A stretch of DNA of 64,000 nt, taken from contig CAWALK010000001.1 in assembly GCA_963782915.1 (NCBI GenBank), positions 96,001 through 160,000 on the forward strand, read 5' to 3'. The notes under the pieces are model-generated. The model was not told the origin of the DNA and ran no database searches. It saw only the letters and a list, made by a program, of their open reading frames with translations. A program made the translations under genes and the position numbers. This DNA is from an uncultured archaeon (lineage in GTDB: Archaea > Thermoproteota > Bathyarchaeia > Bathyarchaeales > Bathycorpusculaceae). Positions within the stretch are counted from its first letter, which is position 1; every line of letters starts with the position of its first letter. This document shows positions 9,344 through 47,783 of this stretch, one piece after another.

Positions 9344-9937
9344 TTAGGCGCTTTTCTCACTCTTAATTTCCTTCTTAGCTGCCGTAATCGGTTTTTTGAG
9401 AACAGGCAATTCTGGTTGTGGCTTATTTTCCGCTTTAATCTGAACAGGATAGACACTGTAGCTTACGCTCAGCTTATGCGGCGAAGAAAGGGCGATCCAA
9501 AGTTTGCTTACATCATCCATTGACTGCGCATCCAATGTGACTCGCAATTCTTCTTTGCTGTCCTTTAAGTCGCCCTGCAGGTCGTCGCCTCGAAGAACAG
9601 GCCTCTCAGCGAATAACTGCATAATTTTTCCAAGAACAACCTGATCCATTAGAGGGTTCTGAGTCAGCGGCGTAATCAGGTAACGCAAATTCAGGTATAG
9701 CAGGGTTTTTGGTTCTTCTGGGTTTTGTGGCTGCGGCTGATTGCGCATGCTCGTATATTCGGTGACGCTGTAGAGGTATATGGAGACTTGCGCTGATTTC
9801 TGGGCATCATTTGGAGCCAGAAAACTGATTTGTTCCTCGCTGCGAATGATTTTGCGTAGTTGCTTGTCCTCTTTTATGCCAGTCCAGATTTTATCAGCCA
9901 ATGTTTGGGTGACGCTGCTTAGGTTGTTGCTGCTCAA
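9344..9937 (-). CDS. DUF4255/Pvc16-like protein (eCIS cap/tail terminator family)
   Basis: VSIYLYSVTE...RNQ, LNLRYLITP, DQVVLGKIMQLF..P.L, SKLW.AL...LSVSYSV. Confidence 0.8.
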   Translation of the reverse strand: MSSNNLSSVTQTLADKIWTGIKEDKQLRKIIRSEEQISFLAPNDAQKSAQVSIYLYSVTEYTSMRNQPQPQNPEEPKTLLYLNLRYLITPLTQNPLMDQVVLGKIMQLFAERPVLRGDDLQGDLKDSKEELRVTLDAQSMDDVSKLWIALSSPHKLSVSYSVYPVQIKAENKPQPELPVLKKPITAAKKEIKSEKSA

Positions 9938-9950
9938 AGCTATCCCTAGC

Positions 9951-10406
9951 TTACTTTACCCGTTGCATAGATTCAAACACGATTTCGAGTGTTTCGATGG
10001 CTACTTCGTTGCCTTTGGCATTGAGATCGGGTGCTTTGTATTTGCTGGGCCACGCATTGGTGAAGTCCCATCGTGCAGCATCGTTGCCTTCCTCATCGAT
10101 TAGGACCACCGATAGGTTTCGGCGGCTCTGTGACATTTTGCCTTGCTCGACTAGTCTGCGCCAATTATAAAGTTCCATAGATGCCGTAAGACCCGACACC
10201 AGGATGAGGTTGCCAAAAGACGCCTGCCCCGCCTGCTTTTGAGTGCTGGCTGCGGTTCCTTCTCTGTGCTCGATAACTTCGCTTGCTGAATCAGGGAGTA
10301 TGATTTCTGAAAAGCTGGCTTGTACAATCCCGCTTATTTCAACTCTAAACCTGTAATTTCCATATGGATCTTTTCTTTGAGTGGTTGCATTTTTTTGTGC
10401 TGACAT
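9951..10406 (-). CDS. Phage tail tube protein (T4 gp19-like; eCIS Afp1/Pvc1 family)
   Basis: RKDPYGNYRFRVEI, IEHREG, RWDFTNAWPSKYKAPDLNAKGNEVAIETLEIVFE. Confidence 0.9.
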   Translation of the reverse strand: MSAQKNATTQRKDPYGNYRFRVEISGIVQASFSEIILPDSASEVIEHREGTAASTQKQAGQASFGNLILVSGLTASMELYNWRRLVEQGKMSQSRRNLSVVLIDEEGNDAARWDFTNAWPSKYKAPDLNAKGNEVAIETLEIVFESMQRVK

Positions 10407-10543
10407 GCCATAACCTCTTGCTGGTTATTCTATTTATGAATGTATTTATGTTTTCGTAAAAGTCAAGAAAAACTACTCTACTGCCTTTGTTGTTGGTTCT
10501 GTACAGTCACGTATGTTAATACGGCAAAATTCGCAGCTATTCC

Positions 10544-16120: not shown

Positions 16121-16278
16121 ATTCTAAACCTGAATATACGATGTCGTGAGTAGCAATATATAAAGCGAGTGTATTGCAGCTACTGATTCAGCGCTTGTGC
16201 AACAAAACAACTGTACAACACAACTACATCACCAAAAAGCAAAACTCTTAATAGCCAAGCCTTTTATCACAAGGTTTT

Positions 16279-19164
16279 ATGAGCCAAACCAAGCAAATGG
16301 AGCAGAAATGGCAGCAAAAATGGGAAGCTGCGCATCTCTTCGAAGCCGACCCTGACCCCAAACGCGAAAAAAAGCTGGTAACTTTCCCGTTTCCATACAT
16401 GAATGGCCCATTGCATGTTGGCCACACCTTTACTGCCAGCCGCGTTGACGCTTATGCCCGTTTCAAGCGTATGCAGGGTTACAATGTGCTTTGGCCTTGG
16501 AGTTGGCACTGGACCGGTCAACCGCTGCTTGGTGCATCTCTGCGGGTGGCAAGGGGCGATGAAGCTTACATCAAAGTGCTGCGCGAAGTCGATGGCGTCC
16601 CTGAAGCGGAACTTCAAAAATTTGTTGACCCCTTCTATATGGCTCAATACTACACTAACGAGGGCCGTGCCGCTGTTAAGGGCGTTGGTTTCTCGGTTGA
16701 TTGGCGCCGCGAATTCACCACTGTTATGCCGACTTTCCAAAAGTTTGTGGAGTGGCAGTACAAGAACCTCAAAGAAAAAGGCTATGTCACCCGTGGCACT
16801 CATCCGGTGGTTTGGTGTCCTAAAGATCAATCTCCAACCGGTGACCATGACCGCCAAAGCGGCGAAGGCGTCACCCCCGAAGAATACACCCTAATCAAGT
16901 ACAAACTGCCCGACGGCACGGTTTTGCCTGCGGCGACTTTCCGCCCCGAAACCATCTACGGCATCACTAACATGTGGATTAACCCGGACGCCACCTACGT
17001 GGAAGCAGACGTCAACGGCGAAACCTGGATTATTAGCCAGGAAGCCGCTGAAAAACTCAAAGAACAAGAGAAAAAAGTCACAGTCAAACGCAGCTTCAAA
17101 GGCGCAGAACTCATAGGCAAAACCTTCGAAAACCCCGTTACAAAACTCAAGTTTCCGATTCTGCCCGGCTGGTTTGTTAACCCCAAAACCGCCACCGGCG
17201 TCGTCTACAGCGTCCCAGCCCATGCACCCTACGATTACCTCGCACTCACGAGACTTGCAGCAGAAGCCCGAAGTGCTCAGCCCAATTCGGCGTGGACCCC
17301 GCGATGGTGCAGGCGATTAAACCAATCTCAATCATTAAAGTCGAAGGCTTCGGCGAATACCCCGCAGTCGAAATCGTCGAAAAAATGGGCATCAAAAACC
17401 AAAATGATCCCAAAGCCGACGAAGCTACCAAAGAACTCTACAAAAAAGAGTTCCACGGAGGCAAACTAAAAGAAAACTGCGGACCCTACGCGGGCAAAAG
17501 CATCCGCGAAGCCAAAGACATCTTGATCGGTGACTTCAAAAAAATGGGCGTCGCCGACAGCATGTATGACCTCTCCGAACCAGTAGTTTGCCGATGCATG
17601 ACACAATGCATCGTAAAGATCCTCTCGGATCAATGGTTCCTTAACTACTCCGATCCGCAGTGGAAGGAGTTGGCGCATCAGGCGGTTGCGCAGATGAACA
17701 TTTACCCCGACTCAGCTAAACCATGGTTCAACACCGTGATCGATTGGCTACGCGAATGGGCTTGTGCACGCACAACTGGTTTTGGTACGCCGTTGCCGTG
17801 GGGTAAAGGCTGGATAATTGAGACGTTAAGCGACAGCACCGTTTACATGGCATTCTACACCATAAACAAACACATTAAACAGAACAGCATAAAACCTGAA
17901 TCACTAACAACCGATGTTTTCGACTATATCTACCTCGGCAAAGGCAATGCAGCGGAACTCTCACAATCCGTGGGAATCGACGTAACACTGTTGGATTCGA
18001 TGCGTAGCGAGTTCCTCTATTGGTACCCGCTTGACTTCCGCAACAGCGCCAAAGAACTGGTACCAAACCACCTTAGCTTCTGCATATTCCACCACGCCGC
18101 ATTATTCCCACCTGAGCATTGGCCCAGAGCCATCGGCGTCAACGGCATGCTAATGGTTGAAGGACAAGGCATGCATAAAAGCAAAGGCAACTTCATCACC
18201 ATGAAGGGCGCAGTCGAAAAGTACGGAGCAGATGCTACTCGCTGTGGGTTGCTGTTGGGTGCTGAAGGGATGGATGATCCCGATTGGCGAGCTGAAAACG
18301 TCAATGATCTCAAAACCAAATTTGAGAGTGTGATGGGTTTTGCAAGCAATATCCTTGCAACAGCCAAGAATGACGATAATACGGCTTTGGAGCGTTGGTT
18401 AGAGAGCCGTTTGCAGCAGCGCATAAAAGATGTTACAGCTGCGCTTGATGAGTTAAAGACTCGCACTGCACTGCAAACCGCGCTGTTTGAAACGTGGAAT
18501 GACCTGCGATGGTACATCCAACGTAAGGGCAACACCAACGCCAAGGTACTGGGCGATGCAGTTAAAGACTGGTTAAAGATGCTTGCGCCCTTTGCACCAT
18601 TCATGTGTGAGGAACTCTGGAGCCAAACAGGCGAAGAAGGCTTCATCAGCGTCGCCAAATGGCCAGTCTACGACCCAGCTAAAATAGATGCAGCCGCTGA
18701 GGAACAAGAAAACCTAGTCACTGCTGTCATGGGCGATACCAACAACATCTTGAAAGCCATGAAAATCGCGCCTGCCAAAATCGTTTACTACACCGCTGCT
18801 CCATGGAAATGGCAGGTTTACCTCAAAATCGTCGAGAAAACCTTAGCTGGCGAAGCAAAAATCAACGAGTTAATGAAGGAATTCGCCTCTGACCCCGCCT
18901 TGAAGCCGCATATGAAAGACATCGCCCCAATGGTACCCACGCATAATTAAAGCACTCACCAAAGTTTCAGGCGACCGCAAAGCAAACATAACCAAAATCC
19001 GCGAAGTAGACGAAAAAGCAATCCTCCAAGGCACAGCAGCATTCTATAAAGACCGCTTCAACGCAGAAATAGCAGTTTACGGCGAATCTGACGAGCAACG
19101 CTTCGACCCCAAAAGCCGCTCAGCAATGGCAATGCCCTATCAGCCAGCAATCTACATCGAATAA
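16279..19164 (+). CDS. leuS: Leucine--tRNA ligase (archaeal type), frameshifted near 17250-17280 and 18940
   Basis: FPFPYMNGPLHVGH, AATFRPET, VYSVPAHAPYD, IETLSDST, GMHKSKGN. C-terminus AMPYQPAIYIE-stop at 19164. Confidence 0.95.
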
Positions 19165-24009: not shown

Positions 24010-24264
24010 GTCCAATACTTTTCCATTCTGCATTTTAAGCAGATACATTTTGTTTTATGCTTAACCTTTTTGCATAGTGCTAACTCTAATTTCGCTTTAA
24101 TTAAAAAAGATGTTATCGCTTCACTGTACCGTTGCCGCTTGTTGTTATTGGGTCTATGGTCGACAGATTCTTTGTTTTTCTCCGTAAACATTGCCTTTTT
24201 AAAACCATTTTTGGCTAGTGCACTTTATCTATCGGTAATCTAAACTCTATTTCGGTACCCAGAT

Positions 24265-25864
24265 TTGACTAACACAGTTGCCCTGCGCGAAATCATCACA
24301 AGACTGCTTTCTATGGATTCCCCCACAGGCGACGATGTCAACAAACTAAAAATTAAGGTCTCAGCCAAATACCACCTGGAAGCGGTACCATCCAACGCTG
24401 ACTTACTTACAGTTTTAACTGATTCAGAATCAAAAAAACTTCTGCCGATCATCAGAAGAAAAAACACCCGAGCCATCAGCGGCGTAACCGTCATCGCCGT
24501 CATGACCAAACCCTACCCGTGCCCGCAACCTGAACCCTGCGCTTACTGCCCCGGAGGACCAACCACAGGTTCGCCGCAAAGCTACACAGGATTTGAACCT
24601 GCCGCGTTGCGTGGAAGCCAAAACAGCTTCGACCCCTACGAGCAAGTGCAGAGCCGCATACGTCAACTCACGGCTATTGGGCATAAGGTGGATAAGGTTG
24701 AGTTGATTGTGATGGGCGGTACTTTTCCGGCGACGCCAATGGAGTACCAGACATGGTTCATCCAGCGTTGCCTTGATGCATTAACTGGCAAAACCTCCGC
24801 TAACTTGGAGGAGGCAGAGGCGAATGCGGAAGTCAGCGAAACCCGCAACGTCGGCATCACCGTCGAAACCCGACCGGACTGGGCAAAACAACCCCATATC
24901 GACGCCATGCTGAGCTATGGGTGTAACCCGCATCGAACTTGGCGTACAAAACCCAGATGATGAAATCTACAAACGCGTCGGCAGAACCCACACCGTCGCA
25001 GACGTAGTTGAAGCAACACAAATCGCCAAAGATTCAGGGCTAAAAATTGTTTATCACATGATGCCCGGAATGCCTGGGTCCAATCCGCAAAAAGATTTTG
25101 ATGCATTCAAACGCATCTTCACCGACTCCCAATTTAAGCCGGATATGATAAAAATTTATCCGTGCCTCGCCATCGCAGGCACCAAAGCCTACCAATGGTA
25201 CCAAGAAGGCACCTTTGAACCATACACAACCGAACAAGCAGCAAATCTAATCGCTGAAATCAAAAAAACCATCCCAAAATGGGTAAGAGTCATGCGTGTA
25301 CAGCGCGATATTCCTGCACGGCTGATTTTGGCTGGGGTAACTAAGAGTGATGTGCGGGAGTTGGCGCAGAAAAAACTCAAAGACCAAGGCATGCAATGCC
25401 AATGTATCCGCTGCCGCGAAGTTGGGCACCGTTTAGCAGTTGACCACGTTGTGCCTGATTTGGAAAAAGTCAAGATTTTAACCGAGCGTTATGAAGCTTC
25501 AGAAGGGCATGAAGTTTTTATTTCCGCCGAAGACCCACAAAACAACGTACTGCTGGGTTACCTGCGCATGCGTGTCCCATCCCCAAAAGCTCACAGACCA
25601 GAAATCACCGAAGTCCCCTCAGCCATCGTGCGGGAACTCCACGTTTACGGCCCCCTCGTCCCAGTCGGCAAACACTCAGCCACCGCATGGCAGCATAAAG
25701 GATATGGCAAAGAACTCTTGGCAGAGGCAGAACGGATTGCAAGCGCCGAGTTTGGGGTCAAAAAGCTTTTAGTTATTAGTGCGTTAGGAACAAGAAGGTA
25801 CTACATGCGTCTGGGTTACGGGCGTGATGGAGTTTACGTTTCAAAGAGGCTAAACACACAATGA
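24265..25864 (+). CDS. elp3: Elp3 tRNA uridine(34) acetyltransferase (radical SAM plus KAT), one frameshift at about 24916
   Basis: RAISGVTVIAVMTKP.PCP...CAYCPGGP, ETRPDW, RVQRDIP, CQCIRCRE, VRELHVYG, QHKGYG. Confidence 0.93.
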
Positions 25865-27204
25865 GCGATTTACAAGATTCAGGGTACAAGGGCAAAGCGC
25901 TAGAACTGCTACAGCAAGCGGATTGCAGCGTCGGCGACATCCTCAAAATCACAAGCAAAGGCAAGACCTACGAGGGCATCTTGATTCCACGCTTCGGCGA
26001 AGGCACCGCCATAATTATCAAAATGAAGAGCGGCTACAACATCGGCATCGAAGCCACCGCCGACGTAACTGTGGAGAAAATCGGCAAAGGCACCAAACCC
26101 ACATTCGCCGCACCGCCACTACCAAAACAGAACCCTGCATTGCCCCACGTCGTTATCATGAGTACAGGCGGAACCATCGCTAGCCGCGTGGACTACCGCA
26201 CAGGCGCAGTCCGCTCAGCCATGTCCGCAAGCGACCTCTACGGCGTCGTACCCGAACTCGCAGACATCGCCAGAGTAGACACAGAAATCGTTTTTAGCAT
26301 TTACAGCGAAAACCTAACACCACAAAACTGGACGGAACTCGCCCAAACCGTTGCCAAACGCATTGAGCAAGGCGTGGACGGCATAGTCATCGCGCATGGC
26401 ACAGACACCATGGCGTACACTTCTGCTGCACTGAGTTTTGCGTTGCAGAACCTGCCAGTTCCAGTCATACTTGTTGGTGCCCAGCGTTCTTCTGACCGAC
26501 CCAGCAGCGACGCAGCAACCAACCTCATCGGCGCAGTCAAAGCCGCAGGCGAAGCACCATTCGCCGAAGTCGGATTAGCCATGCACGAAACCGTCTCCGA
26601 CACAGCAATCGCCATCCACCACGGCACCAAAGTACGCAAATGCCACACCAGCCGCCGAGACACATTCAAATCCATCAACGGCTTCCCAATCGCCAAAGTC
26701 CAAAACCTCCAAGTCACCATGGTAGCGGATGCTTACCAGAAAAGAGACCCCAAACGCAAACTCGTTGTAAAACCGAACTTCAGCGATAAAGTAGCGCTCG
26801 TCAAATTCTATCCTGGTCTTGACCCAGCAGTAATCGACTTCTATGTCGACCGGGGCTTCAAGGGCATCCTGCTTGAAGGCTCAGGATTGGGTCATGTGAG
26901 CAAGTTCTGTTTTGACGCAGTCAAACGTGCCACAGCTAAAGGTGTGGTGGTTGCGTTGGCTTCCCAGTGCATCTGGGGACGCGTGGACATGAACGTTTAC
27001 GACACAGGCCGAGACCTGCTATCGTTTGGCGTGGTTCCGCTGGATGATATGTTCCCAGAAACTGGCTTGGTGAAACTGATGTGGGCGCTCGGACAAACAG
27101 GTGATCCCAAAGAAGCCATCACACTATTGCAAACTAACATTGCAGGCGAATACTCGCCCCGCACCCTTCCACAAGACAAAATCATAGAAGGAGGACCACA
27201 ATAA
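25861..27204 (+). CDS. gatD: Glutamyl-tRNA(Gln) amidotransferase subunit D
   Basis: STGGTIASRVDYRTGAV, HGTDT, QRSSDRPSSD. Confidence 0.97.
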   Translation: MSDLQDSGYKGKALELLQQADCSVGDILKITSKGKTYEGILIPRFGEGTAIIIKMKSGYNIGIEATADVTVEKIGKGTKPTFAAPPLPKQNPALPHVVIMSTGGTIASRVDYRTGAVRSAMSASDLYGVVPELADIARVDTEIVFSIYSENLTPQNWTELAQTVAKRIEQGVDGIVIAHGTDTMAYTSAALSFALQNLPVPVILVGAQRSSDRPSSDAATNLIGAVKAAGEAPFAEVGLAMHETVSDTAIAIHHGTKVRKCHTSRRDTFKSINGFPIAKVQNLQVTMVADAYQKRDPKRKLVVKPNFSDKVALVKFYPGLDPAVIDFYVDRGFKGILLEGSGLGHVSKFCFDAVKRATAKGVVVALASQCIWGRVDMNVYDTGRDLLSFGVVPLDDMFPETGLVKLMWALGQTGDPKEAITLLQTNIAGEYSPRTLPQDKIIEGGPQ

Positions 27205-29104
27205 TGCCCATCGACTACGCAAAAGTCGGCTTAAAAGTCGGCTTAGAAATCCACCAACAACTCAACGTCGGCAGCAAACTCTTCTGCAGTTGCCCGCCTG
27301 AACTATTTAAGGAAGAACCAGAAATCACATTCCTACGCCGATTGAGACCAACCCAGAGCGAACTGGGCCAAGTAGACCCTGCAGCCTTCTTCGAATTCCA
27401 GAAAGGCGTAAAAATCCTCTACGAAGCCAGCCATAAAAGCAGCTGCCTAGTCGAAATGGACGAGGAACCCCCACACCCAATCAACCTCGACGCAGTCAAA
27501 GTCGTCTTAACCGCTTCATTAATGATGAATATGCAGCCCGTTGACGAAGTCCATGTGATGCGCAAAACCGTCATCGACGGCTCAAACACCACAGGCTTCC
27601 AACGCACCACCATCATCGCCTTGGACGGCTGGATCAAAGTCGGCGACAAAATCATTCCCATGCAAGCCTCCAGCCTCGAAGAAGACGCAGCACGCAAAAC
27701 AGGCACGCAGGATGAGGGCAAAACCATCCGTTACCGCATCGACCGCTTAGGCATTCCACTAATCGAAGTCGCCACGGCACCTGTAATCTATTCGCCGCAG
27801 GAAGCCCAAGAAGTCGCCCTTGCCATCGGCAGAATACTCCGAGACACAGGCAAAGTCATGCGTGGACTTAGGCACCATCCGCCAAGACCTTAACGTTTCC
27901 TTGCCAAACGGCGCATTAATCGAAATAAAAGGTGTACAAGCACTCGACTTAATCGCCACCGTCGTTGACTATGAAGTTCAGCGCCAACTAAACTTGATTG
28001 CTATCAAAGAGGAACTCGCCAAACGAGGCATCACACCCGACTCGCTAAAAGCAGAGTTTGTTGATGTTACAGGACTCTTCAAAGCCACAAAGAGCAAAGT
28101 AATCCGCAAAGCAGTCGACAAAAACCAAAAAGTTCTCGCTGTCAAATTCTCAGGCTTCAACGGTTTAACTGGCCGCGAATTGATGCCCAACTTCCGCTTA
28201 GGCAGCGAACTATCTGATTACGCAAAATTCTGGGGCAGAGTCGGCGGCATATTCCACACTGACGAAGTCCTCGCCAATTATGGTATCACACCTGAAGAAG
28301 TCAAAGCCCTAAGAGACGCAGTTGGCGCAGCAGAAATAGACGCAGTAGTTTTTGTCGCTGACACCGCAGAGAATACCTATGACGCACTCAAGGCAGTTGT
28401 TGACCGCGCACAAGTAGCCTGCAATTGCATCCCGCAGGAAACCCGAACAGCAAAAGACGACGGCACCTCCCGCTACATGCGTCCACGACCAGGCGCAGCA
28501 AGAATGTACCCCGAAACCGACATTCCACCCCAACCAATAACCAACGAATTAGTCACGTTGGTCAGGGAAAATTTGCCTGAGTCAGCCGACAAAAAAACCG
28601 CACGCCTAATCAAACAATACGGCTTAAACGACAAATTAGCCAAGCAACTCTTAGACTCCGAATACCTCGAAGCCTTTGAAGAAGCAGCCCAAAAAAGCGG
28701 CACAGCAGCCTCCACAGTAGCGGCGTTTCTAACTGAAACCGTGAAATCACTAAAACGTGACGGTATCCAAACCGAAAACGTCTCAGATGACCAAATCCGT
28801 GGCATATTTGCAGCGGTCGGTTCAGGGGAACTTGCCAAAGAAGCTATCGCAGACGTGTTTAGTTGGCTAGCCAAGAACGAGGGCAAAACAGTGCAGGACG
28901 CAGTTACTGCTTTAGGGCTTAAAATGTTCACCGAAGCAGATTTGGCGCCAGTGATTGATCGCATCATCGCCGCCAACAAAGCCCAAATCGAAAAATTGGG
29001 CAAGAACGCGTTTGGTATGCTCATGGGCGCCGCCATGAAGGAAGTACGAGGCAAAGCCAACCCTGAACTCGTCGGCAAACTGCTTGCGTGAACGGTTCAA
29101 GTAG
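27204..29104 (+). CDS. gatE: Glutamyl-tRNA(Gln) amidotransferase subunit E, frameshifts at about 27867 and 29086
   Basis: GLKVGLEIHQQL, RKTVIDGSNTTGFQRT, GTIRQDLNVS, RPRPGAARMYPETDIP. Confidence 0.95.
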
Positions 29105-32011: not shown

Positions 32012-32175
32012 AAGTAATCATTTAATAGGTTGTTTTATTCTAATAGAATATCTGTCACCGAATTAAAGAGTTTTTTGAGTGTGACTTATATGGGAGAAGT
32101 CCGATTAAAATGGGTTATAAGCCAAAATCGTATAACAAAATGTTTCCCAATTAGTAAAAGCAATGGTTTTGAAAT

Positions 32176-32889
32176 ATGGCTGTAAGTCAAGAAAGTGTTT
32201 CCAAAGTGCTTTCGGTCCTTTCACATCCCCTTAGACGGGATATATTATTGGACTTAAGCAATAATGGAGAGTCATCCTTCACTGATTTGCTAAATCTACT
32301 CAAGGTAGATACTGGCAAACTCAGTTTCCACTTGCGTTCTCTCTCGCCCTTTATAGAGCAGACGCCAAGCGGCAAATACAAACTTAGTAGAGCAGGCGAA
32401 AGCGCTGTACGCGTCATCCATGATGTTGAAGGCTGGGCAGAAGTCGCTGATGTACAGGGCAAAGCAAGCACATTACCGCTGTCTTCATTTAAAAAACGGA
32501 GTTTTGCCTTCTTAATCGACTTTGCTTTAATCGTTGCTATAACCATGGCTATTACATTCATTCCGCAACTTCTATCCCTTAATTCACCCGGACAACTCGG
32601 CAGCGAAATCAGCACAGTGCTCTTTATCACCATCGGCCTGCTTTGGCTCTACTCCACATTGCTGGAGGGCTTCAACGGTCAAAGCATAGGCAAACGCGTC
32701 ATCGGCCTCAAAGTCGTCCGCACGGACGGAAAGAAAATGTCCTACGACCATGCAGCTGTGCGCAACTTCGGCAAAGTCTTGCCCCTGTTGCCCTTTGATT
32801 TGCTGTTAGGTTGGCGCATAAAAAGCCAAGCTTTCATGCGTTACTTCGACAAGTTCGCGGGCACAACTGTTATTGACCTGCGCTCTTAA
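32176..32889 (+). CDS. ArsR-type wHTH fused to RDD membrane domain
   Basis: LSHPLRRDIL...TGKLSFHL; KRSFAFLID, GQSIGKRVIGLKVV, FDKFAGTTV. Confidence 0.85.
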   Translation: MAVSQESVSKVLSVLSHPLRRDILLDLSNNGESSFTDLLNLLKVDTGKLSFHLRSLSPFIEQTPSGKYKLSRAGESAVRVIHDVEGWAEVADVQGKASTLPLSSFKKRSFAFLIDFALIVAITMAITFIPQLLSLNSPGQLGSEISTVLFITIGLLWLYSTLLEGFNGQSIGKRVIGLKVVRTDGKKMSYDHAAVRNFGKVLPLLPFDLLLGWRIKSQAFMRYFDKFAGTTVIDLRS

Positions 32890-32963
32890 TTCCCCTTTTC
32901 AACCAATTTTTTGATGTAAAATCTTATTTGCCCCCTCAGCATAGCCTTGTAGGTGGAGATTGT

Positions 32964-33428
32964 ATGAGCGATAAGGAACTCAGGGTCAACAAAATCAAAG
33001 ATGGCACAGTAATCGATCACATTCGCGGCGGCTACGCACTCGATGTCGTAAACATTTTAGGCATAACTGGCAAAGAGAAACGAGTCATGACCATAGCGAT
33101 TAACGTGCCAAGCAAACACCTTGGCGTTAAAGATATCGTAAAAATCGAAGGCAAAGCCCTAAACGCCGAAGAAGTAAACCGCATCGCCCTGGTCGCTCCG
33201 CGTGCGTCAATCAACATCATTAAAGATTACTTGGTAGTTGAGAAACTCGAAGTAAAACTGCCCCAAACCATCGAAGGCATAATAAAATGCGGCAACCCCT
33301 GCTGCGTAAGCAACAACGGCGAACCCATCTCTTCCAAATTCCATGTGAAAAACGAAGAGCCGCTTGTGCTAAAATGCCACTACTGCGGCGTCACCCTCGA
33401 ACAAACCGATGTCTTAGCTCAACTCTAA
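32964..33428 (+). CDS. pyrI: Aspartate carbamoyltransferase regulatory chain
   Basis: IKDGTVIDHI, KDIVKIE, CGNPCCVS, KCHYC. Confidence 0.95.
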   Translation: MSDKELRVNKIKDGTVIDHIRGGYALDVVNILGITGKEKRVMTIAINVPSKHLGVKDIVKIEGKALNAEEVNRIALVAPRASINIIKDYLVVEKLEVKLPQTIEGIIKCGNPCCVSNNGEPISSKFHVKNEEPLVLKCHYCGVTLEQTDVLAQL

Positions 33429-33897: not shown

Positions 33898-34423
33898 CTA
33901 GCGGTCTTTTTTCGGGGGCGCCACACCATTATCATGCTTATATTTCCCCTCATAGCCCGTAACCAAAGGCGTTTTTAGCTCTGCAAATACCAAATGCAGA
34001 AAACCGTGTTTTTACGGGAATTTTGATTGGGAAGGGGCCGCCTGATATTTGGATGGTAAGGTTGCCTTCAAACCCCGCATCAACAACGGTCGGAGGAATA
34101 GAGGCGCCGGCCCTTGAGAATGTGCTTCGGAGCTGACAGAAAGCCATCAAATCATTGCCTAACTTCACTTTCTCCAAAGTGGCAACCAGTACCTTCTCGT
34201 ACTTACCCAAAACAAAAGAGTCCGCGGCTTTTTCCTTAAAATAGAGCCCCTCATTATTCGGCGACTGTATATCCAGCACTTTATCGGTGGGTTGTAAACG
34301 CACTATTTCCTCAGAGAAACGTAGGTCTACGCCGTTTTCCCTTATTGTATCCTCACTTAATGGGTTAATTGTCAGCGATCCCTGCTCGATAGCTTTCTTC
34401 AAATCCAACGCAGACAGTATCAA
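33898..34423 (-). CDS. dcd: dCTP deaminase (frameshift near 3' end)
   Basis: MILS, ENGVDLR, RSTFSRAG, VDAGFEGNLT. Shifted tail LHLVFAELKTP...YEGKY, stop at 33898. Confidence 0.9.
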
Positions 34424-42169: not shown

Positions 42170-42298
42170 ATGGTTAAAAAAGAAGTTTGTGATTCATGCC
42201 AAGAAAATAAAGCCGAATACGCCTTAGACGAAAGAAACCTATGTTGCGACTGCTACAAACGCGAAGTCAAAGAAGAACCAATCATAGTCATAGCTTAG
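42170..42298 (+). CDS. Small zinc-finger micro-protein (42 aa)
   Basis: MVKKEVCDSCQENKAEYALDERNLCCDCYKREVKEEPIIVIA; two CxxC motifs; GGAAGGA upstream. Confidence 0.7.
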   Translation: MVKKEVCDSCQENKAEYALDERNLCCDCYKREVKEEPIIVIA

Positions 42299-42320
42299 CC
42301 TTTGGCATACAAAGTGTTAA

Positions 42321-43280
<960 letters not shown>

Positions 43281-43283
43281 TTC

Positions 43284-45503
43284 TTAAGTTGATGTGAATC
43301 GGTCAAACGTCGTCAGTGCACTCATCGACCCACATGATGGGCATTTGTGCAGTGTGCCAACCCAGTTTTTCTTGCAGTTGCCGCAGAAGCATATTGTGCG
43401 GTTGTAAGTGAAGAATTCGCTGGCTTGATTCTCAATTATGCGTTTTGTTAAGTCGAGTAGGGCTTCGGGGTTGAATTCGTCGCCGTCTAACTCGTAGACA
43501 TCCAAGCTTCCGCCTGTAGTTGAGACCTTTGGTGGTTTGCGCCATCTCTATTGTGCCTGTGGGTGCGATGAGGTTCTGGGCGGCTTTTATTTGGATGCGT
43601 TTGATGGTTGAATAGTATGGTTTGTCTCGGGATCCTGAGAATTTGACTTTGGCGACGCCGTATCTTTCTACGTCGAGTTGTGCTAGGCGTTCTGCGGCTT
43701 CGCGGTCGATTAGCACTGCGGGGTAGAGGCGTTTGCCATATTTTCTGCCCAGCTTCTGCTTAAACGCCAGCAGAGCGGTGATGACTTCTTCCGTGAATTT
43801 TCGGCTTTCCTCGTCACCCATGCTTTTTTCGGTAAAAGTTTCAACCGCTTCCTTTAACCCTGCCAAATTTATTATTCTTGAGCAGTTTTCCAAGCGGAAG
43901 TATGTGTCGCCGTTGCCCTTCTGCATCAGAAACGGCAGACGAGTTTTTGCCATACTGTTTTAGTGCATTGCTCTTTAGGCTTAATGCGCGTGCGGCTAAT
44001 TCATAGCGTTCTTTGGTTAAGTCGATGAATTTGTTTTTGTCTTTTTCACATTCAATCGCTATTCTGGGGAGATTGATGGTTACGGAGCCGAGGCAGCCTG
44101 TGCGTAGGGTATCGGTTTCCCAGTCGCCTGTTGAGTCAGCAATGAATTTGACGCCTGTTGAGGAGAAGGCTGCGTTCTCTGTTTCCTTCTTAGTCAAATT
44201 GGAGAAGTATAGTAGCCCATTTTTTGCGGCTAATTCATGAGCTTTTCTGAGAAGCGCAAGGGCTTTTTCGTCGCCATAAACGTCGCTGCTGACTTTAATG
44301 ACAAGTTTAGGGCATAAGTAGCGGTTTAATGGCGCTTTCTTCCGCGAAAATGTCGATTATTAGTGATGCCAGCAGCTGGGCTTCTTGGAGGTAATCGCCA
44401 TATTTGCCGCAGGCTTTCCCCTCGGAGCCAATGGCTTCTTTCTCCGATGCCGACTTGGAGATGCAGAGTTCAAGCGCCAGTGTGGCATCGACATGTTGGT
44501 TAAGGTTGAGTATGAACAGGCGCAGGTTCTCTTTGAGGCTGACAACTTCGTTGCCCCGAATAAACGGTGCAAGTGACAGGTTAAAGTAGTTGAAGGTCTG
44601 GGTTCGGTTGGTTTCTCGGTAACTATGCAGTAATACGTTGAAGGCTATGGAGAGGGCAGATTTGAAATCTTTAGGCGGTTCCATGTAGACTTGGCGTGCA
44701 TCGTCGAGTCTGATGCCGTGTTGGTAGAAGTAGCGCAGTTCATGGATGACTTCGCTGGGTTTTAGCACCCAAGTGCCTAAGCCGTCGATGTGGATGGCAC
44801 CTGAGAGATGTGCGTCGGCGATGTCTCTGGGGAAAATGTTTAGGAGCGCATATTCTGCTAAGACAGTTTCTCCTGCCCGATTGATGGTGTCCTCCGCGTC
44901 TAAGGGTGCATCTTTGGATTCGATAAGCGCTGTTACTTCATGGACTGGCATGCCAACGCGGGCTAGTTTATTGCGGTAATCTTCATAGCCTTTTTCGACG
45001 AGGATGCCGTTGACGACCTCGCGGATAAGCTGTGCGGTGAGGTACTTTGTTTTGGATTTTACGAGGCGTTTTTCTGCTTCTTTAGCTGCTTTTTGGGCTA
45101 ATTCAGCTGGAACTTTGGCTTCTTTGATTAGTGAGTTGGCGATTTTGTTGGCGTCAAACTCTTCAACGGTCAAATGTGAGGTGCGGACAAGCATGCCGCG
45201 GGGTTTAACCGCCTTCTTCTCGACGCGGTCGGCAACATCAAGCACCATCTTGCCCAAATCAGTGAGATAATACTTTTTGGCTTCAACGTCTGCCTCAACC
45301 AAATCGGCTTTGAGCAGAAATTTTAGGTGATAAGCAAACCTGCCTGCGTCGCGGCTGGGGTTCATTTTAAGCTGATTCATAAGTTCCGTGTAGGAGAGGG
45401 CGCTTTTGTCGAAGAGCAAGTTTAGGATTTGTAGCCTGAGGGGTGACGAAACGGCTTTTAGCACTTTGACGCCGCGGCTTCTAAGCGGTTGCTGATTAAC
45501 CAT
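43284..45503 (-). CDS. wHTH + ATP-cone + class III RNR (NrdD)-fold protein lacking catalytic motifs; three apparent frameshifts
   Basis: Fragments 44307..45503, 43841..44197, 43432..43953, 43284..43505. SSPLRLQIL..FAYHL (HTH), EEFDANKI...TAQLIRE (ATP-cone), IADAHLSGAIHI, VTINLPRIA, AAERLAQLD, CxxC...CPSCGS. Confidence 0.85.
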
Positions 45504-45614
45504 ACCCCTCTGTTCCTCTTGCCCGATTTTGTGGTGCTCTACCTATTATTCCAGTGGAGACTATAAACTTGACTAAAAAGGGGTTAAAAAGGGAAGTGTT
45601 GGGCAGTTGGCTGC

Positions 45615-46661
45615 TTAGGCGGGGCAGGGCTGCTGTTGGCTGATGCAGTGCAATGTGCCGAAGCCGTAGACTAGGTCTTTGCAGCATATGCCGACGACTT
45701 TGCGGGTTGGAAACAGCCCTTGGAGAATCTCCAGTGCCTTTTTGTCGTGGGGATGGTCAAAGACGGGTACAAGCACTTTGGTGTTGCCTATGTAGAAGTT
45801 TGTGTAGCTGGCGGGCAATCGGTAGTCTTCGTCGCTGACTACTTTAGGCATCGGCAACTTGATTATTGTTAGGGGTTTGCCGTCCTGGTCCACTGATTTG
45901 GTGAGCAAGTCATAGTTTTCTTTGAGTGCATCATAGTCGGCGTCGTTTTCGTTATCCTCATAAGCGCAGACGATGGTGGTGGGGTTGACGAAGCGGGCTA
46001 AATCGTCGATATGGCCGTCAGTGTCATCGCCTAAGATGCCGCGTTTGAGCCAGATGAAGTGGCGTACGCCCAAGAAATCGGATAGGTACTGCTCGATTTT
46101 CTGTTTGTTAAGGGTTGGGTTGCGGTTGCTGTTTAACAGGCACTGCTCGGTGGTTAAGAGTGTGCCTTCGCCGTTGACGTCAATTGAGCCGCCCTCCAAC
46201 ACAATGCCCGGTTTAAAGCAGGTAAGTTTTAGGTCCTTGTTTATGACGTCGGGGATTTCTTTGTCTTTGAGCAGGGTTTCGTATTTGTCGCCCCAGCTGT
46301 TGAAGTCCCAGTGAATCATCGCCAACTCATGCTTGGGGTTCTTGACGAAGATGGGGCCGTAGTCGCGGAACCAAACGTCAGCGTAGTCGGAGACCCAAAT
46401 GTGAACCCGATCCAAGTTGATGCTTACAGCTTTGAACATTGACGTGGCTTTCTTTTTTGTGGGCTCATCGATTACAAAGAGGTTTACTTCTTCGCTCTCA
46501 TGAATCTCCTTGATTATTTGGACATAGGTTTGTTCAACCCGATCGACGCGGTCAGGGAAAGTTGTTGGGTCATAGGGCCACGCTAACCAAATCGCGGCAT
46601 GACGTTGCCACTCCGCTGGCATTGCAAAGCCTTGATCATTGCAGGTTTTGTTGCAGCTCAT
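45615..46661 (-). CDS. aguA: Agmatine deiminase
   Basis: MPAEW, WFRDYGP, LEGGSIDVNGEG, DTDGHID, ASYTNF, GTLHCISQQQP. Confidence 0.95.
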   Translation of the reverse strand: MSCNKTCNDQGFAMPAEWQRHAAIWLAWPYDPTTFPDRVDRVEQTYVQIIKEIHESEEVNLFVIDEPTKKKATSMFKAVSINLDRVHIWVSDYADVWFRDYGPIFVKNPKHELAMIHWDFNSWGDKYETLLKDKEIPDVINKDLKLTCFKPGIVLEGGSIDVNGEGTLLTTEQCLLNSNRNPTLNKQKIEQYLSDFLGVRHFIWLKRGILGDDTDGHIDDLARFVNPTTIVCAYEDNENDADYDALKENYDLLTKSVDQDGKPLTIIKLPMPKVVSDEDYRLPASYTNFYIGNTKVLVPVFDHPHDKKALEILQGLFPTRKVVGICCKDLVYGFGTLHCISQQQPCPA

Positions 46662-47598
46662 TGTGTTGCATCTCCAGCTTTGGTTTTGACGAGTGGAGTG
46701 TAGGTGTCTGGGCGTCGGTTGCGCAGGAATCCCCAGCCTTCCTTGATGCGTTCGTTATGTGATAAATCTAGCTTGGCTATGATGACTTCCTCTTTTGTGG
46801 TGCTGCCTTCCGCTATGACTTTACCGAAGGAATCGCACACAAAGCTGCCTCCCCAGAACTCCAGCCAACCCTCTTCACCCACACGATTCACCGCTGCAAC
46901 GTGGATGCCATTAGCTATTGCGTGGGCACGCTGGACGGTTCTGCCAGGCGTCATGCCAGTCGCCGTCTTGGGAGGTGTGGCCTTTTATGTAGCCGATGGC
47001 TGTGGGATAAAAGATGATTTCTGCCCCATCCAAAGCGTTGATTCTTGCCGGTTCAGGGAACCATTGGTCATAGCAAATCAGCACACCGATTCGGGCGTAA
47101 GCGGTGTTGTAGGCTTTGTAACCCTCTTCGCCTGGGGCAAAGTAGTCTTTTTCGTAGAAGTACGGGTCATATGGAATATGCGCCTTGCGGTAGACGCCTG
47201 CGATGGAGCCGTCTGCGTCGATTACTACGGCCGTATTGTAGGTTTTGCCGTTGGGGTTCTTCTCAAAAAGCGGCGCAATAATCACAACTATGATGCTTTT
47301 TTGCCAACTCTGAAAACATGCGTGTGGAGTCGCCGGGGATGGATTCTGCCAGCGCTGACACGTCAAGGTGTTCTTCTTGTGGAAAATATTGTGAACGGTA
47401 AAGTTCCTGGAGGCAAATAATCTGTGCGCCTGCTTGCGCGGCTTCTATGATTTTTTCTTCTGTTTTCTTCATATTTGCCGCTATGTCTTCGGAGACAGCC
47501 GTTTGAATCAGCCCAACAGTTACTATCTTGCTGGGGGCGTTTTGGGTTGGTTTGCCGGTGTTAATATTTTTTCCATCCTTGATTCGAATATTCCACAA
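46658..47598 (-). CDS. aguB: N-carbamoylputrescine amidohydrolase (nitrilase family), two frameshifts
   Basis: ICLQEL, YRKAHIP..P.FYEK.YF, ICYDQWFPE, YPTAIG, HAIANG, RNRRPDTY; adjacent to aguA. Confidence 0.88.
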
Positions 47599-47783
47599 GT
47601 GTTCGTATTAACTTTTTTGAATCGTCTGCATGGGTGAAACGTGGAATTAAGCCCAATTGACCTTGGCTGCTGGCAGTGAAAATGCTTATTTCGCAAGAAG
47701 CCCTATAGTAACATGTTGTTTTAGGCTATTAAAAAAACAGATAGCCAAAGTTTTGTAGGGATTAATTATCGCAACTAAAGAAA

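Follow-up and report, generated by a model that had tools for sequence, protein, structure and literature searches.

A winged-helix protein built on a catalytically dead class III ribonucleotide reductase as a candidate archaeal regulator of DNA-precursor and pyrimidine synthesis

Introduction

Why would an archaeon keep a gene for a relative of the anaerobic ribonucleotide reductase (RNR) NrdD that lacks the catalytic residues and carries a predicted DNA-binding head? The gene in question lies at positions 43284 to 45503 of a stretch of 64,000 nucleotides (nt), here called the window, from an uncultured archaeon of the Bathyarchaeia (assembly GCA_963782915.1, contig CAWALK010000001.1, positions 96,001 to 160,000). 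An earlier, sequence-only reading took its product for a pseudo-enzyme that senses (deoxy)nucleoside triphosphates, (d)NTPs, and acts as a transcription factor. In this study, we compared the gene with NrdD and with its relatives in other archaeal genomes and found a family of NrdD homologues with an N-terminal winged helix-turn-helix (wHTH), here named the wHTH-NrdD family. Its homology with NrdD, its catalytic loss, the purifying selection on it, its distribution and its gene context are described below. On balance, we favor the view that the family is an undescribed archaeal regulator of DNA-precursor and pyrimidine synthesis, formed by a dead NrdD with an ATP-cone and a DNA-binding head. 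To our knowledge, the transcriptional control of deoxynucleotide and pyrimidine synthesis in archaea is largely unknown, and the wHTH-NrdD family may be the missing archaeal regulator.

Domain layout of the gene

The gene is encoded on the minus strand, with its stop codon at 43284-43286, and is divided into four open reading frame (ORF) pieces that run through frames 0, 1, 2 and again 0. Read through the three frame breaks, it yields a protein of 738 amino acids (aa) with the following features.

43284..45503, minus strand: whole gene, with wHTH, ATP-cone, dead NrdD barrel and zinc ribbon (738-aa protein read through three frame breaks)
45237..45464, minus strand: wHTH of the ArsR/DUF7347 type, aa 14-89 (PF24038 and PF01022, HTH_5)
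44976..45191, minus strand: ATP-cone of the 'VRTS' type, aa 105-176 (PF03477)
43386..44885, minus strand: NrdD-like ten-stranded barrel region without the catalytic residues, aa ~207-705 (PF13597, colinear)
44751..44753, minus strand: Glu251, at the column of the second (bottom-face) active-site Cys of NrdD (alignments)
44138..44173, minus strand: finger-loop segment AAFSSTGVKFIA, aa 444-455, where NrdD has (M)GCR or MCCR (alignments)
43332..43385, minus strand: Cys4 zinc ribbon, C706, C709, C720 and C723 in the numbering of the intact orthologue P0001 (conservation in the family)
43287..43307, minus strand: C-terminal FDRFTST, then stop (hhalign and joint alignment)

The wHTH, ATP-cone, NrdD-like barrel and C-terminal zinc site named in the sequence-only reading were all recovered with Pfam, with which the NCBIfam domain picture agrees, and by conservation in the family. 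The wHTH scored 33.3 bits with PF24038 (DUF7347; cut-off, 27.6) and 30.5 bits with PF01022 (HTH_5; cut-off, 22), and in an AF2 model its secondary structure elements follow the order H-H-H-H-E-E-H, as in the ArsR-type wHTH. The ATP-cone reached 32.3 bits with PF03477 (cut-off, 25.8). Across the four ORF pieces, the NRDD profile PF13597 was matched colinearly at positions 13-148, 207-327, 330-452 and 466-538 of 562. The protein ends with CFCGNC...CPSCGSMSALTTFDRFTST followed by a stop, and the final residues of the translated reading are ...CFCGNCKKNWVGTLHKCPSCGSMSALTTFDRFTST, again followed by the stop.

Loss of NrdD catalysis

Over the ATP-cone, barrel and zinc ribbon, the family is homologous to ATP-cone-bearing NrdD (structures 9d3x, 8p2c/8p2s, 4coj, 4u3e and 1h79). 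An hhalign comparison of 40 diverse members with eight canonical NrdDs gave a probability of 100 and an E value of 3e-151 over 663 columns, from the ATP-cone to the C terminus. A Foldseek search with the AF2 model (pLDDT, 86.7; pTM, 0.75) returned class III RNR structures at all ranks listed, to rank 36 (E = 1e-23 to 7e-18), followed by PflD and class Ia RNR at ~1e-9.

Sixty-one columns are invariant in the eight canonical NrdDs, of which 30 are kept in at least 80% and 15 in less than 20% of the 40 members. The well-kept columns include the Asn of NLPR, R605/D610, the GG pair and three of the four zinc Cys; all four ribbon Cys are invariant in 40 of 40 diverse members, and they are kept in 70 to 71 of 71 close orthologues. 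Among the poorly kept columns, the strand Cys, i.e., the second active-site Cys, is found in 0% of the members, the Cys of the finger loop in 5% and the Tyr that follows the radical Gly in 3%. The second His in HIHD, the Ala in PAE and the Asn in TNS belong to the same set, and one further invariant His is lost as well. The radical Gly itself is kept in 28% of the members.

For a wider view, we used a 103-row alignment consisting of 98 proteins of 560 to 800 aa from the best 150 database matches, four close orthologues and the genome's own NrdD; shorter fragments and proteins above 800 aa lie outside this set. As judged with a profile built from the family, the wHTH is present in 84 of the 103 rows and in none of the six canonical rows. 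The strand Cys occurs in 0 of the 84 wHTH rows, and the Gly column holds a gap in 32, G in 13, and A, S, T and N in seven each. After the zinc ribbon, 39 of these rows continue for more than 20 residues and 28 stop within 20 residues, as the window protein does; the ribbon is absent from the remaining 17.

In the close orthologues, the strand Cys column holds Glu in 70 of 71 and Ser in one. Their Gly column holds S in 50, G in five, A in three and other residues in the rest, and the intact orthologues share a C-terminal FDRF(T/A/S)S(T/I). In the window protein, the radical Gly is replaced by Ser737 and the Tyr that follows it by Thr738, i.e., the chain ends one residue past the Gly column. A check of all frames between the stop at 43284-43286 and the end of pyrB at 43280 found no Gly-Tyr, just as the sequence-only reading had stated for a protein that stops at FDRFTST. 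The canonical HIHD...C segment, noted in that reading as altered, reads HIDGLGTWVLKPSE with Glu at the Cys column.

At the finger loop, the G-x-K register has x = V in 27, I in 13, C in 10, L in eight, T in five, A in four and S, Y, N or F in one each of the 71 orthologues. The 10 with an SGCK loop are L055, L056, L058, L059, L061, L065, L074, L076, L079 and L082. In the MAFFT and hhalign alignments, the canonical Cys falls one or two columns off the G-x-R/K register, and a separate anchor-based recount was noisy. Independently of the register, neither the window protein nor P0001 contains a Cys in aa 444-455, in line with the Cys-free SSTGVK loop reported before.

Membership in NrdD proper was also assessed by score and context. 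On TIGR02487, P0001 reaches 232.6 bits, below the equivalog cut-off of 326.35, compared to 559.7 bits for the genome's true NrdD (and 1068.9 bits on NF006126). The InterPro set IPR012833, which we take to be built on TIGR02487, would then not include the sub-cut-off wHTH-NrdD family. Thus, homology over the barrel is present, and the radical loop, the thiyl Cys, the second Cys, a score above the cut-off and an adjacent NrdG are missing. The gene is flanked by pyrB and an agmatine-deiminase-type gene, with no radical S-adenosylmethionine (SAM) activase, which agrees with the earlier remark on the lack of an adjacent nrdG. A separate, intact RNR, for which the sequence-only reading had suggested a search, is encoded in the same genome by an nrdR-nrdD-nrdG operon on the 13-kb contig C6 (6263-9522, L001); a second copy lies on contig C1 at 23.8-27.1 kb, with 60 to 97% protein identity over the matched pieces.

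The wHTH-NrdD family is therefore a pseudo-enzyme of NrdD descent that, having lost the radical loop, the thiyl Cys, the second Cys and other active-site residues, is unable to reduce ribonucleotides. The alignment across orthologues, with its variable or missing Gly column and no strand Cys in any wHTH row, leaves neither an RxxGY loop nor the catalytic Cys set intact, which is what the sequence-only reading had expected of a dead reductase.

The frequent Ser at the Gly column of the close orthologues raises the alternative that the protein is an aminoacyl-radical enzyme in which this Ser carries the radical. Ala, Ser and Thr radicals have been described for enzymes of the pyruvate formate-lyase type (PMC11528403), and a non-Gly residue, often Ser, at the radical position is a feature that these enzymes have in common with the family. 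For class III RNRs of IPR012833, only the canonical Gly is reported in that paper. The aminoacyl radical enzymes have a complete radical domain with the Cys loop and are served by an activase, whereas the wHTH-NrdD chain ends at the radical position and its Cys residues are gone. With the chain ending one residue past the Ser, no loop would reach into the barrel. The column is variable (S, G, A, T, N, Q, F, L and others) or deleted, the second Cys is absent from all wHTH rows and the thiyl Cys from most, no activase is adjacent, and the family thrives in aerobic ammonia oxidizers (see below). We consider a radical on this Ser extremely improbable.

One wHTH-bearing protein, P0172, has an RRLGYL motif after the zinc ribbon and lacks both active-site Cys. 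It may represent an intermediate stage of the loss.

Frame breaks in the window copy

The window copy of the gene is interrupted at three sites, each with one extra base and none at a homopolymer.

44317..44319: frame break 1, one extra base (tblastn boundaries; letter 44319 absent from the X2 contig; blastn against L009 gives the window an additional letter at 44317)
43939..43943: frame break 2, one extra base (tblastn; letter 43943 absent from X2; insertion at 43939 by blastn against L009)
43520..43521: frame break 3, one extra base (tblastn; letter 43520 absent from X2; insertion at 43521 by blastn against L009)

Residues 1-738 of the intact orthologue P0001 (738 aa) are matched in the window by four ungapped tblastn pieces of 92 to 98% identity. 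An 11.4-kb contig of a relative (run X2, ~91% alike) spans the whole gene region and lacks exactly the letters 43520, 43943 and 44319; it also drops single letters at further places in the neighboring C-N hydrolase gene. Across the second site, two short contigs (X1 record 1 and X3 record 15) are each one letter shorter, with the gap not placed at 43943. Blastn against L009 (87% identity) opened additional gaps at 43814 and 43352 that are unsupported by tblastn, and tblastn was relied on.

Other genes of the window are broken in the same manner, with Pfam positions that are continuous across the pieces.

16255-18947: leucyl-tRNA synthetase, split over frames
24244-25861: ELP3-like radical-SAM/GNAT gene, split over frames
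27138-29088: GatE, split over frames
46661-47607: C-N hydrolase, in three pieces

Since the essential leucyl-tRNA synthetase and GatE are split likewise, indel errors in the contig are indicated. We used this continuity within the window because the genome-wide ORF coverage of 84% is uninformative for the frameshift rate. The nrdR-nrdD-nrdG operon, too, is broken into many frames on C1 and intact on C6.

Three frame breaks within 2.2 kb could also mark a genuine, decaying pseudogene. A decaying copy fits poorly with the remaining sequence: none of the four pieces contains an in-frame stop, the copy is identical to P0001 at 701 of 732 residues, and at 398 columns that are at least 80% conserved in the 71 orthologues it has three private changes compared to two in P0001. 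Moreover, its putative upstream promoter blocks are conserved, the relative's contig lacks precisely the three extra letters, and both the essential genes of the window and the C1 copy of the operon show the same kind of damage. We regard real frameshifts as very improbable. Given the relatives without the extra bases and the other split genes, the three breaks are most likely assembly errors, and the organism probably makes the intact 738-aa protein. The frame correction that the sequence-only reading had called for thus recovers an undisturbed reading, with breaks that are absent from relatives.

Members, distribution and selection

A word-index search for longer proteins identified at least 120 protein clusters of 725 to 747 aa, 118 of 120 with 734 to 739 aa. 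The same four Pfam families are found in all 120 clusters, and the first 398 residues are 78 to 96% identical. In the databases, cluster members are named 'ArsR family transcriptional regulator' or 'anaerobic ribonucleoside-triphosphate reductase', and 'ribonucleoside-triphosphate reductase (formate)' is another name for such proteins. Such names would mistakenly attribute class III RNR activity to aerobes and to other genomes. In an exhaustive search of 50%-identity representatives, 1707 proteins matched at E <= 1e-3 and 314 of them at E <= 1e-30, with true NrdDs among the matches.

Among the matches listed, a relative is encoded in 589 of 599 matched species-genome stretches, and the best 79 loci are almost all labeled Bathyarchaeia. 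The first 260 residues are matched at E <= 1e-10 in 278 of 401 sampled genomes of the phylum (220 of 335 in the high-quality subset). The presence differs by taxonomic family: all 56 sampled genomes of f15 carry a match, and none was found in f16 (0/16), f24 (0/23), f25 (0/12) or f30 (0/15). Five complete f15 genomes all encode archaeal amoA, and in none of these ammonia oxidizers does an NrdD score above the cut-off; their sole NrdD-like match is the wHTH-NrdD protein itself, at 35 to 71 bits. A dead class III reductase that is kept in aerobes without a live one argues against a role as a partner of NrdD.

Selection was assessed with the Nei-Gojobori method on 71 orthologous genes, of which 129 of 2485 pairs had a synonymous divergence (dS) of 0.15 to 1.5. 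Over these pairs, the ratio of nonsynonymous to synonymous divergence (dN/dS) had a median of 0.096 for the whole gene; it was lowest in the wHTH (0.035), followed by the ATP-cone (0.055) and the C terminus (0.068), and highest in the barrel (0.116). Purifying selection is hence strong on every domain. Positions invariant in the 40 diverse members are densest in the wHTH recognition helix and the ATP-cone; the predicted recognition helix is nearly invariant across the family, and the ATP-cone is among its most conserved parts.

Selection on the barrel could also indicate that it was remodeled for a new, non-radical reaction on a nucleotide or related metabolite, which would make the protein a trigger enzyme or purely an enzyme. 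Besides the barrel dN/dS, the 30 canonical-invariant columns that are well kept, with the NLPR Asn, R605/D610 and the GG pair among them, would be compatible with such an activity. These columns are, however, largely Gly, Pro and other structural positions, and the invariant list contains no new conserved polar catalytic set. The zinc ribbon and C terminus have been lost in whole subfamilies (17 of 84 wHTH rows), and no cofactor-related gene is a conserved neighbor. A new enzymatic function is therefore decidedly unlikely in our judgment.

ATP-cone type and origin of the family

Many ATP-cones carry a KRDG motif; the cone of the family carries VRTS instead, a consensus that it shares with the nearest active archaeal NrdDs. 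The cone is therefore inherited and not degenerate. A FastTree phylogeny of the 103 rows, calculated from the cone-to-ribbon columns, places six canonical and 11 dead sequences without a wHTH on one side and the 84 wHTH rows on the other, with a branch support of 99. In this quick and unrooted tree with few canonical sequences, the split fits one old origin of the wHTH form.

The 11 wHTH-less homologues without Gly-Tyr (P0191, P0193, P0205, P0222, P0238, P0247, P0250, P0254, P0258, P0259 and P0264) form a second group, which falls with the canonical NrdDs. In several of them, the N terminus carries one more ATP-cone-like stretch, and the group may constitute a dead-reductase lineage of its own.

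Gene neighborhood

The genes that surround the locus belong to nucleotide metabolism both in the window and across the phylum. In the window, pyrB is the direct neighbor and pyrI and dcd are found at a distance of ~9 to 10 kb, as the sequence-only reading had indicated.

42360..43280, plus strand: pyrB, aspartate carbamoyltransferase catalytic chain (OTCace_N and OTCace); tail to tail with the wHTH-NrdD gene, stop codons 3 bp apart
32928-33428: pyrI, ~9-10 kb from the wHTH-NrdD gene
33950-34423: dcd, ~9-10 kb from the wHTH-NrdD gene

In 73 of the 79 close loci, pyrB lies on the opposite strand, 7 to 278 bp (mostly 7 to 20 bp) past the stop of the wHTH-NrdD gene. Two further loci have pyrB with coordinates disturbed by a second NrdD-like hit, and four are at a contig edge. 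The upstream side is variable, with an agmatine deiminase gene in 15 and a Nop5-type gene in 34 of the 79. For a wider sample, we inspected up to three ORFs on each side in 20 loci from other families of the phylum.

L089, L090, L092-L097, L102, L105: pyrB and/or pyrI, convergent, right after the gene
L088, L107: true nrdD directly downstream on the same strand, followed by pyrB (L088) or placed after a glutaredoxin (L107)
L103, L104: PF02867-type reductase (class I/II-type) with ATP-cone directly downstream
L101: dCTP deaminase directly downstream
L093, L095, L096: 224-228-aa gene of the amino-acid-kinase family (UMP-kinase-like), divergent upstream
L098, L099, L100, L106: no nucleotide gene within three ORFs
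L091: contig end

A nucleotide-type neighbor is thus present in 15 of the 19 informative loci, and no radical-SAM family was found among the neighbors inspected. In the ammonia-oxidizer family f15, a PF02867-type reductase gene follows 189 to 433 bp past the stop in 22 of 22 loci.

Upstream regions

Two blocks upstream of the gene recur before most of 67 orthologous genes.

45531..45575, minus strand: conserved upstream blocks, composed of a BRE/TATA-like block (transcription factor B recognition element and TATA box; 45561-45575) and a second block (45531-45552) that ends 27 nt before the ATG

Judged by their sequence, they look like an ordinary BRE/TATA plus start region.

In the ammonia-oxidizer loci L103, L104 and L108-L127, GATC occurs at 18.6 per kb in the 200 nt upstream of the family gene and at 13.0 per kb in the spacer before the reductase gene, compared to 4.5 per kb in coding sequence, i.e., it is three to four times denser around the gene than within it. 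In L103 and L104, those regions are the only 200-nt windows with four or more GATC.

Before pyrB, a block CAAAGTGTTATTTAGCAGTT is conserved at ~30 to 50 nt in 62 related loci (window 42220-42359), the proteins being only 60 to 80% identical. This block is probably the pyrB BRE/TATA.

The genome (G000) also encodes a 118-aa stand-alone ATP-cone-like protein (C25, 75712-76068). A 14-nt block-like stretch 29 nt before that gene lies inside the end of an upstream ORF and was judged a chance match.

Proposed function

A mechanism can be proposed from these data. The NrdD scaffold would form a dimer or higher oligomer bearing two or more winged helices, and the ATP-cone would read ATP/dATP or a related nucleotide state. 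That state would move the winged helices or alter the degree of oligomerization and, hence, change promoter binding. Candidate targets are pyrB/pyrI, the nrd genes, dcd and the UMP-kinase-like gene, and the protein would be a functional archaeal counterpart of bacterial NrdR. We infer ligand binding, DNA binding, targets and the direction of regulation alike. In its full form, the proposal describes a transcription factor derived from an inactivated NrdD in archaea of at least this phylum, in which the cone and possibly the allosteric sites of the barrel read the (d)NTP pool and the wHTH sets transcription of pyrBI, nrd, dcd and the UMP-kinase-like gene, as the long-missing counterpart of NrdR; we rate this complete version as slightly better than even.

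Several observations weigh against this proposal. The genome has a true NrdR beside nrdD (149 aa; 155.8 bits with TIGR00244, above its cut-off of 124.65), and such a full match is unusual for an archaeon. RNR control here may therefore not need the wHTH-NrdD protein, which may serve the pyrimidine genes of this organism rather than nrd. The cone departs from the KRDG motif of many cones, although the nearest active NrdDs share its VRTS. Many active-site residues besides the radical ones are lost and the pocket is heavily remodeled, so nucleotides may no longer be bound at the former substrate site, in which case the ATP-cone alone would do the sensing. Ten of the 71 orthologues have a Cys at the GCR place of the finger loop, always without the glycyl loop and the second Cys. 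The pairing with pyrB is convergent, and a regulator and its target are usually divergent. In addition, inspection by eye of the 160-nt regions upstream of 67 orthologues and of the regions upstream of 62 pyrB genes found no shared palindrome. Genome scans with the two block sequences gave 10 and four hits, none at nucleotide genes, and the block core is not enriched in the genome (14 hits versus 10 for the control); nor is the pattern AAANTGATCNAAA in one complete ammonia-oxidizer genome (11 versus eight). Altogether, these upstream comparisons and motif scans found no NrdR-box-like operator or repeated palindromic box.

The convergent pairing with pyrB/pyrI and the operator that was not found would also be expected if the protein sensed nucleotides and modulated an enzyme as its partner or scaffold, for instance aspartate carbamoyltransferase or ribonucleotide reductase, with the winged helix as a protein-contact module that does not bind DNA. 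NrdD scaffolds are dimeric and ATP-cones drive oligomer changes (PMC11226230), which would suit this role as well. However, the wHTH matches DNA-binding families above their cut-offs, its predicted recognition helix is nearly invariant, and its dN/dS is the lowest of all domains. NrdD is not a general partner, since five of five ammonia-oxidizer genomes have the family and no true NrdD, and neighbors that vary by lineage fit a regulon better than one fixed partner. A scaffold of this kind is unlikely, and a nucleotide-responsive, DNA-binding regulator remains the reading that we favor.

Comparison with known regulators and novelty

NrdR is the RNR-specific repressor of most bacteria and a few archaea and consists of a zinc ribbon plus an ATP-cone. 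The wHTH-NrdD family resembles it in the fusion of a DNA-binding module to an ATP-cone and in adjoining RNR genes in several lineages, and we propose the same logic for it, in that a nucleotide state read by the cone would control nucleotide-synthesis promoters. In contrast to NrdR (TIGR00244), the DNA-binding module is a wHTH and not an N-terminal zinc ribbon, and there is no homology outside the cone. Because a whole dead reductase is carried along, the protein is also five times the size of NrdR (738 versus ~150 aa). By analogy, the family would work most like NrdR without being a member of it. NrdR is described as rare in archaea, and in bacteria its nucleotide state changes DNA binding at promoters (PMC9110341).

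The N-terminal 90 residues also connect the family with ArsR/SmtB and DUF7347 regulators, matching HTH_5 and DUF7347 above the cut-offs. The score with the metalloregulator model NF033788 is only 33 to 34 bits against a cut-off of 55, and the sensor part consists of an ATP-cone plus a dead enzyme instead of a metal site. Compared to NrdD itself, the family differs by the added N-terminal wHTH, by the missing glycyl-radical loop and second Cys and the lost or variable thiyl Cys, and by its occurrence in NrdD-less genomes and aerobes.

A search of the full-text literature, which did not extend to subscription journals and supplements, found no description of the family, and the accessible part of the RNRdb paper (PMC2795772) does not mention such proteins. 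A family of catalytically dead, wHTH-bearing NrdD homologues is thus probably undescribed. If the proposed function is correct, the family would clearly illustrate how a radical enzyme can become a sensor, and the reuse of an entire enzyme of this kind as a DNA-binding protein that senses a ligand would be rare. The family persists even in aerobes that lost the enzyme itself. The family is carried by the ecologically dominant ammonia oxidizers, which are culturable, so the question is testable.

Other observations in the window

At 32173-32886, directly upstream of pyrI and on the same strand, lies a gene for another DUF7347-type winged helix, which is fused to an RDD-family membrane domain. 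A pair of adjacent genes at 9347-10424, with matches to Pvc16_N and the T4 gp19 tail-tube family, may belong to a contractile injection system or be what remains of a prophage.

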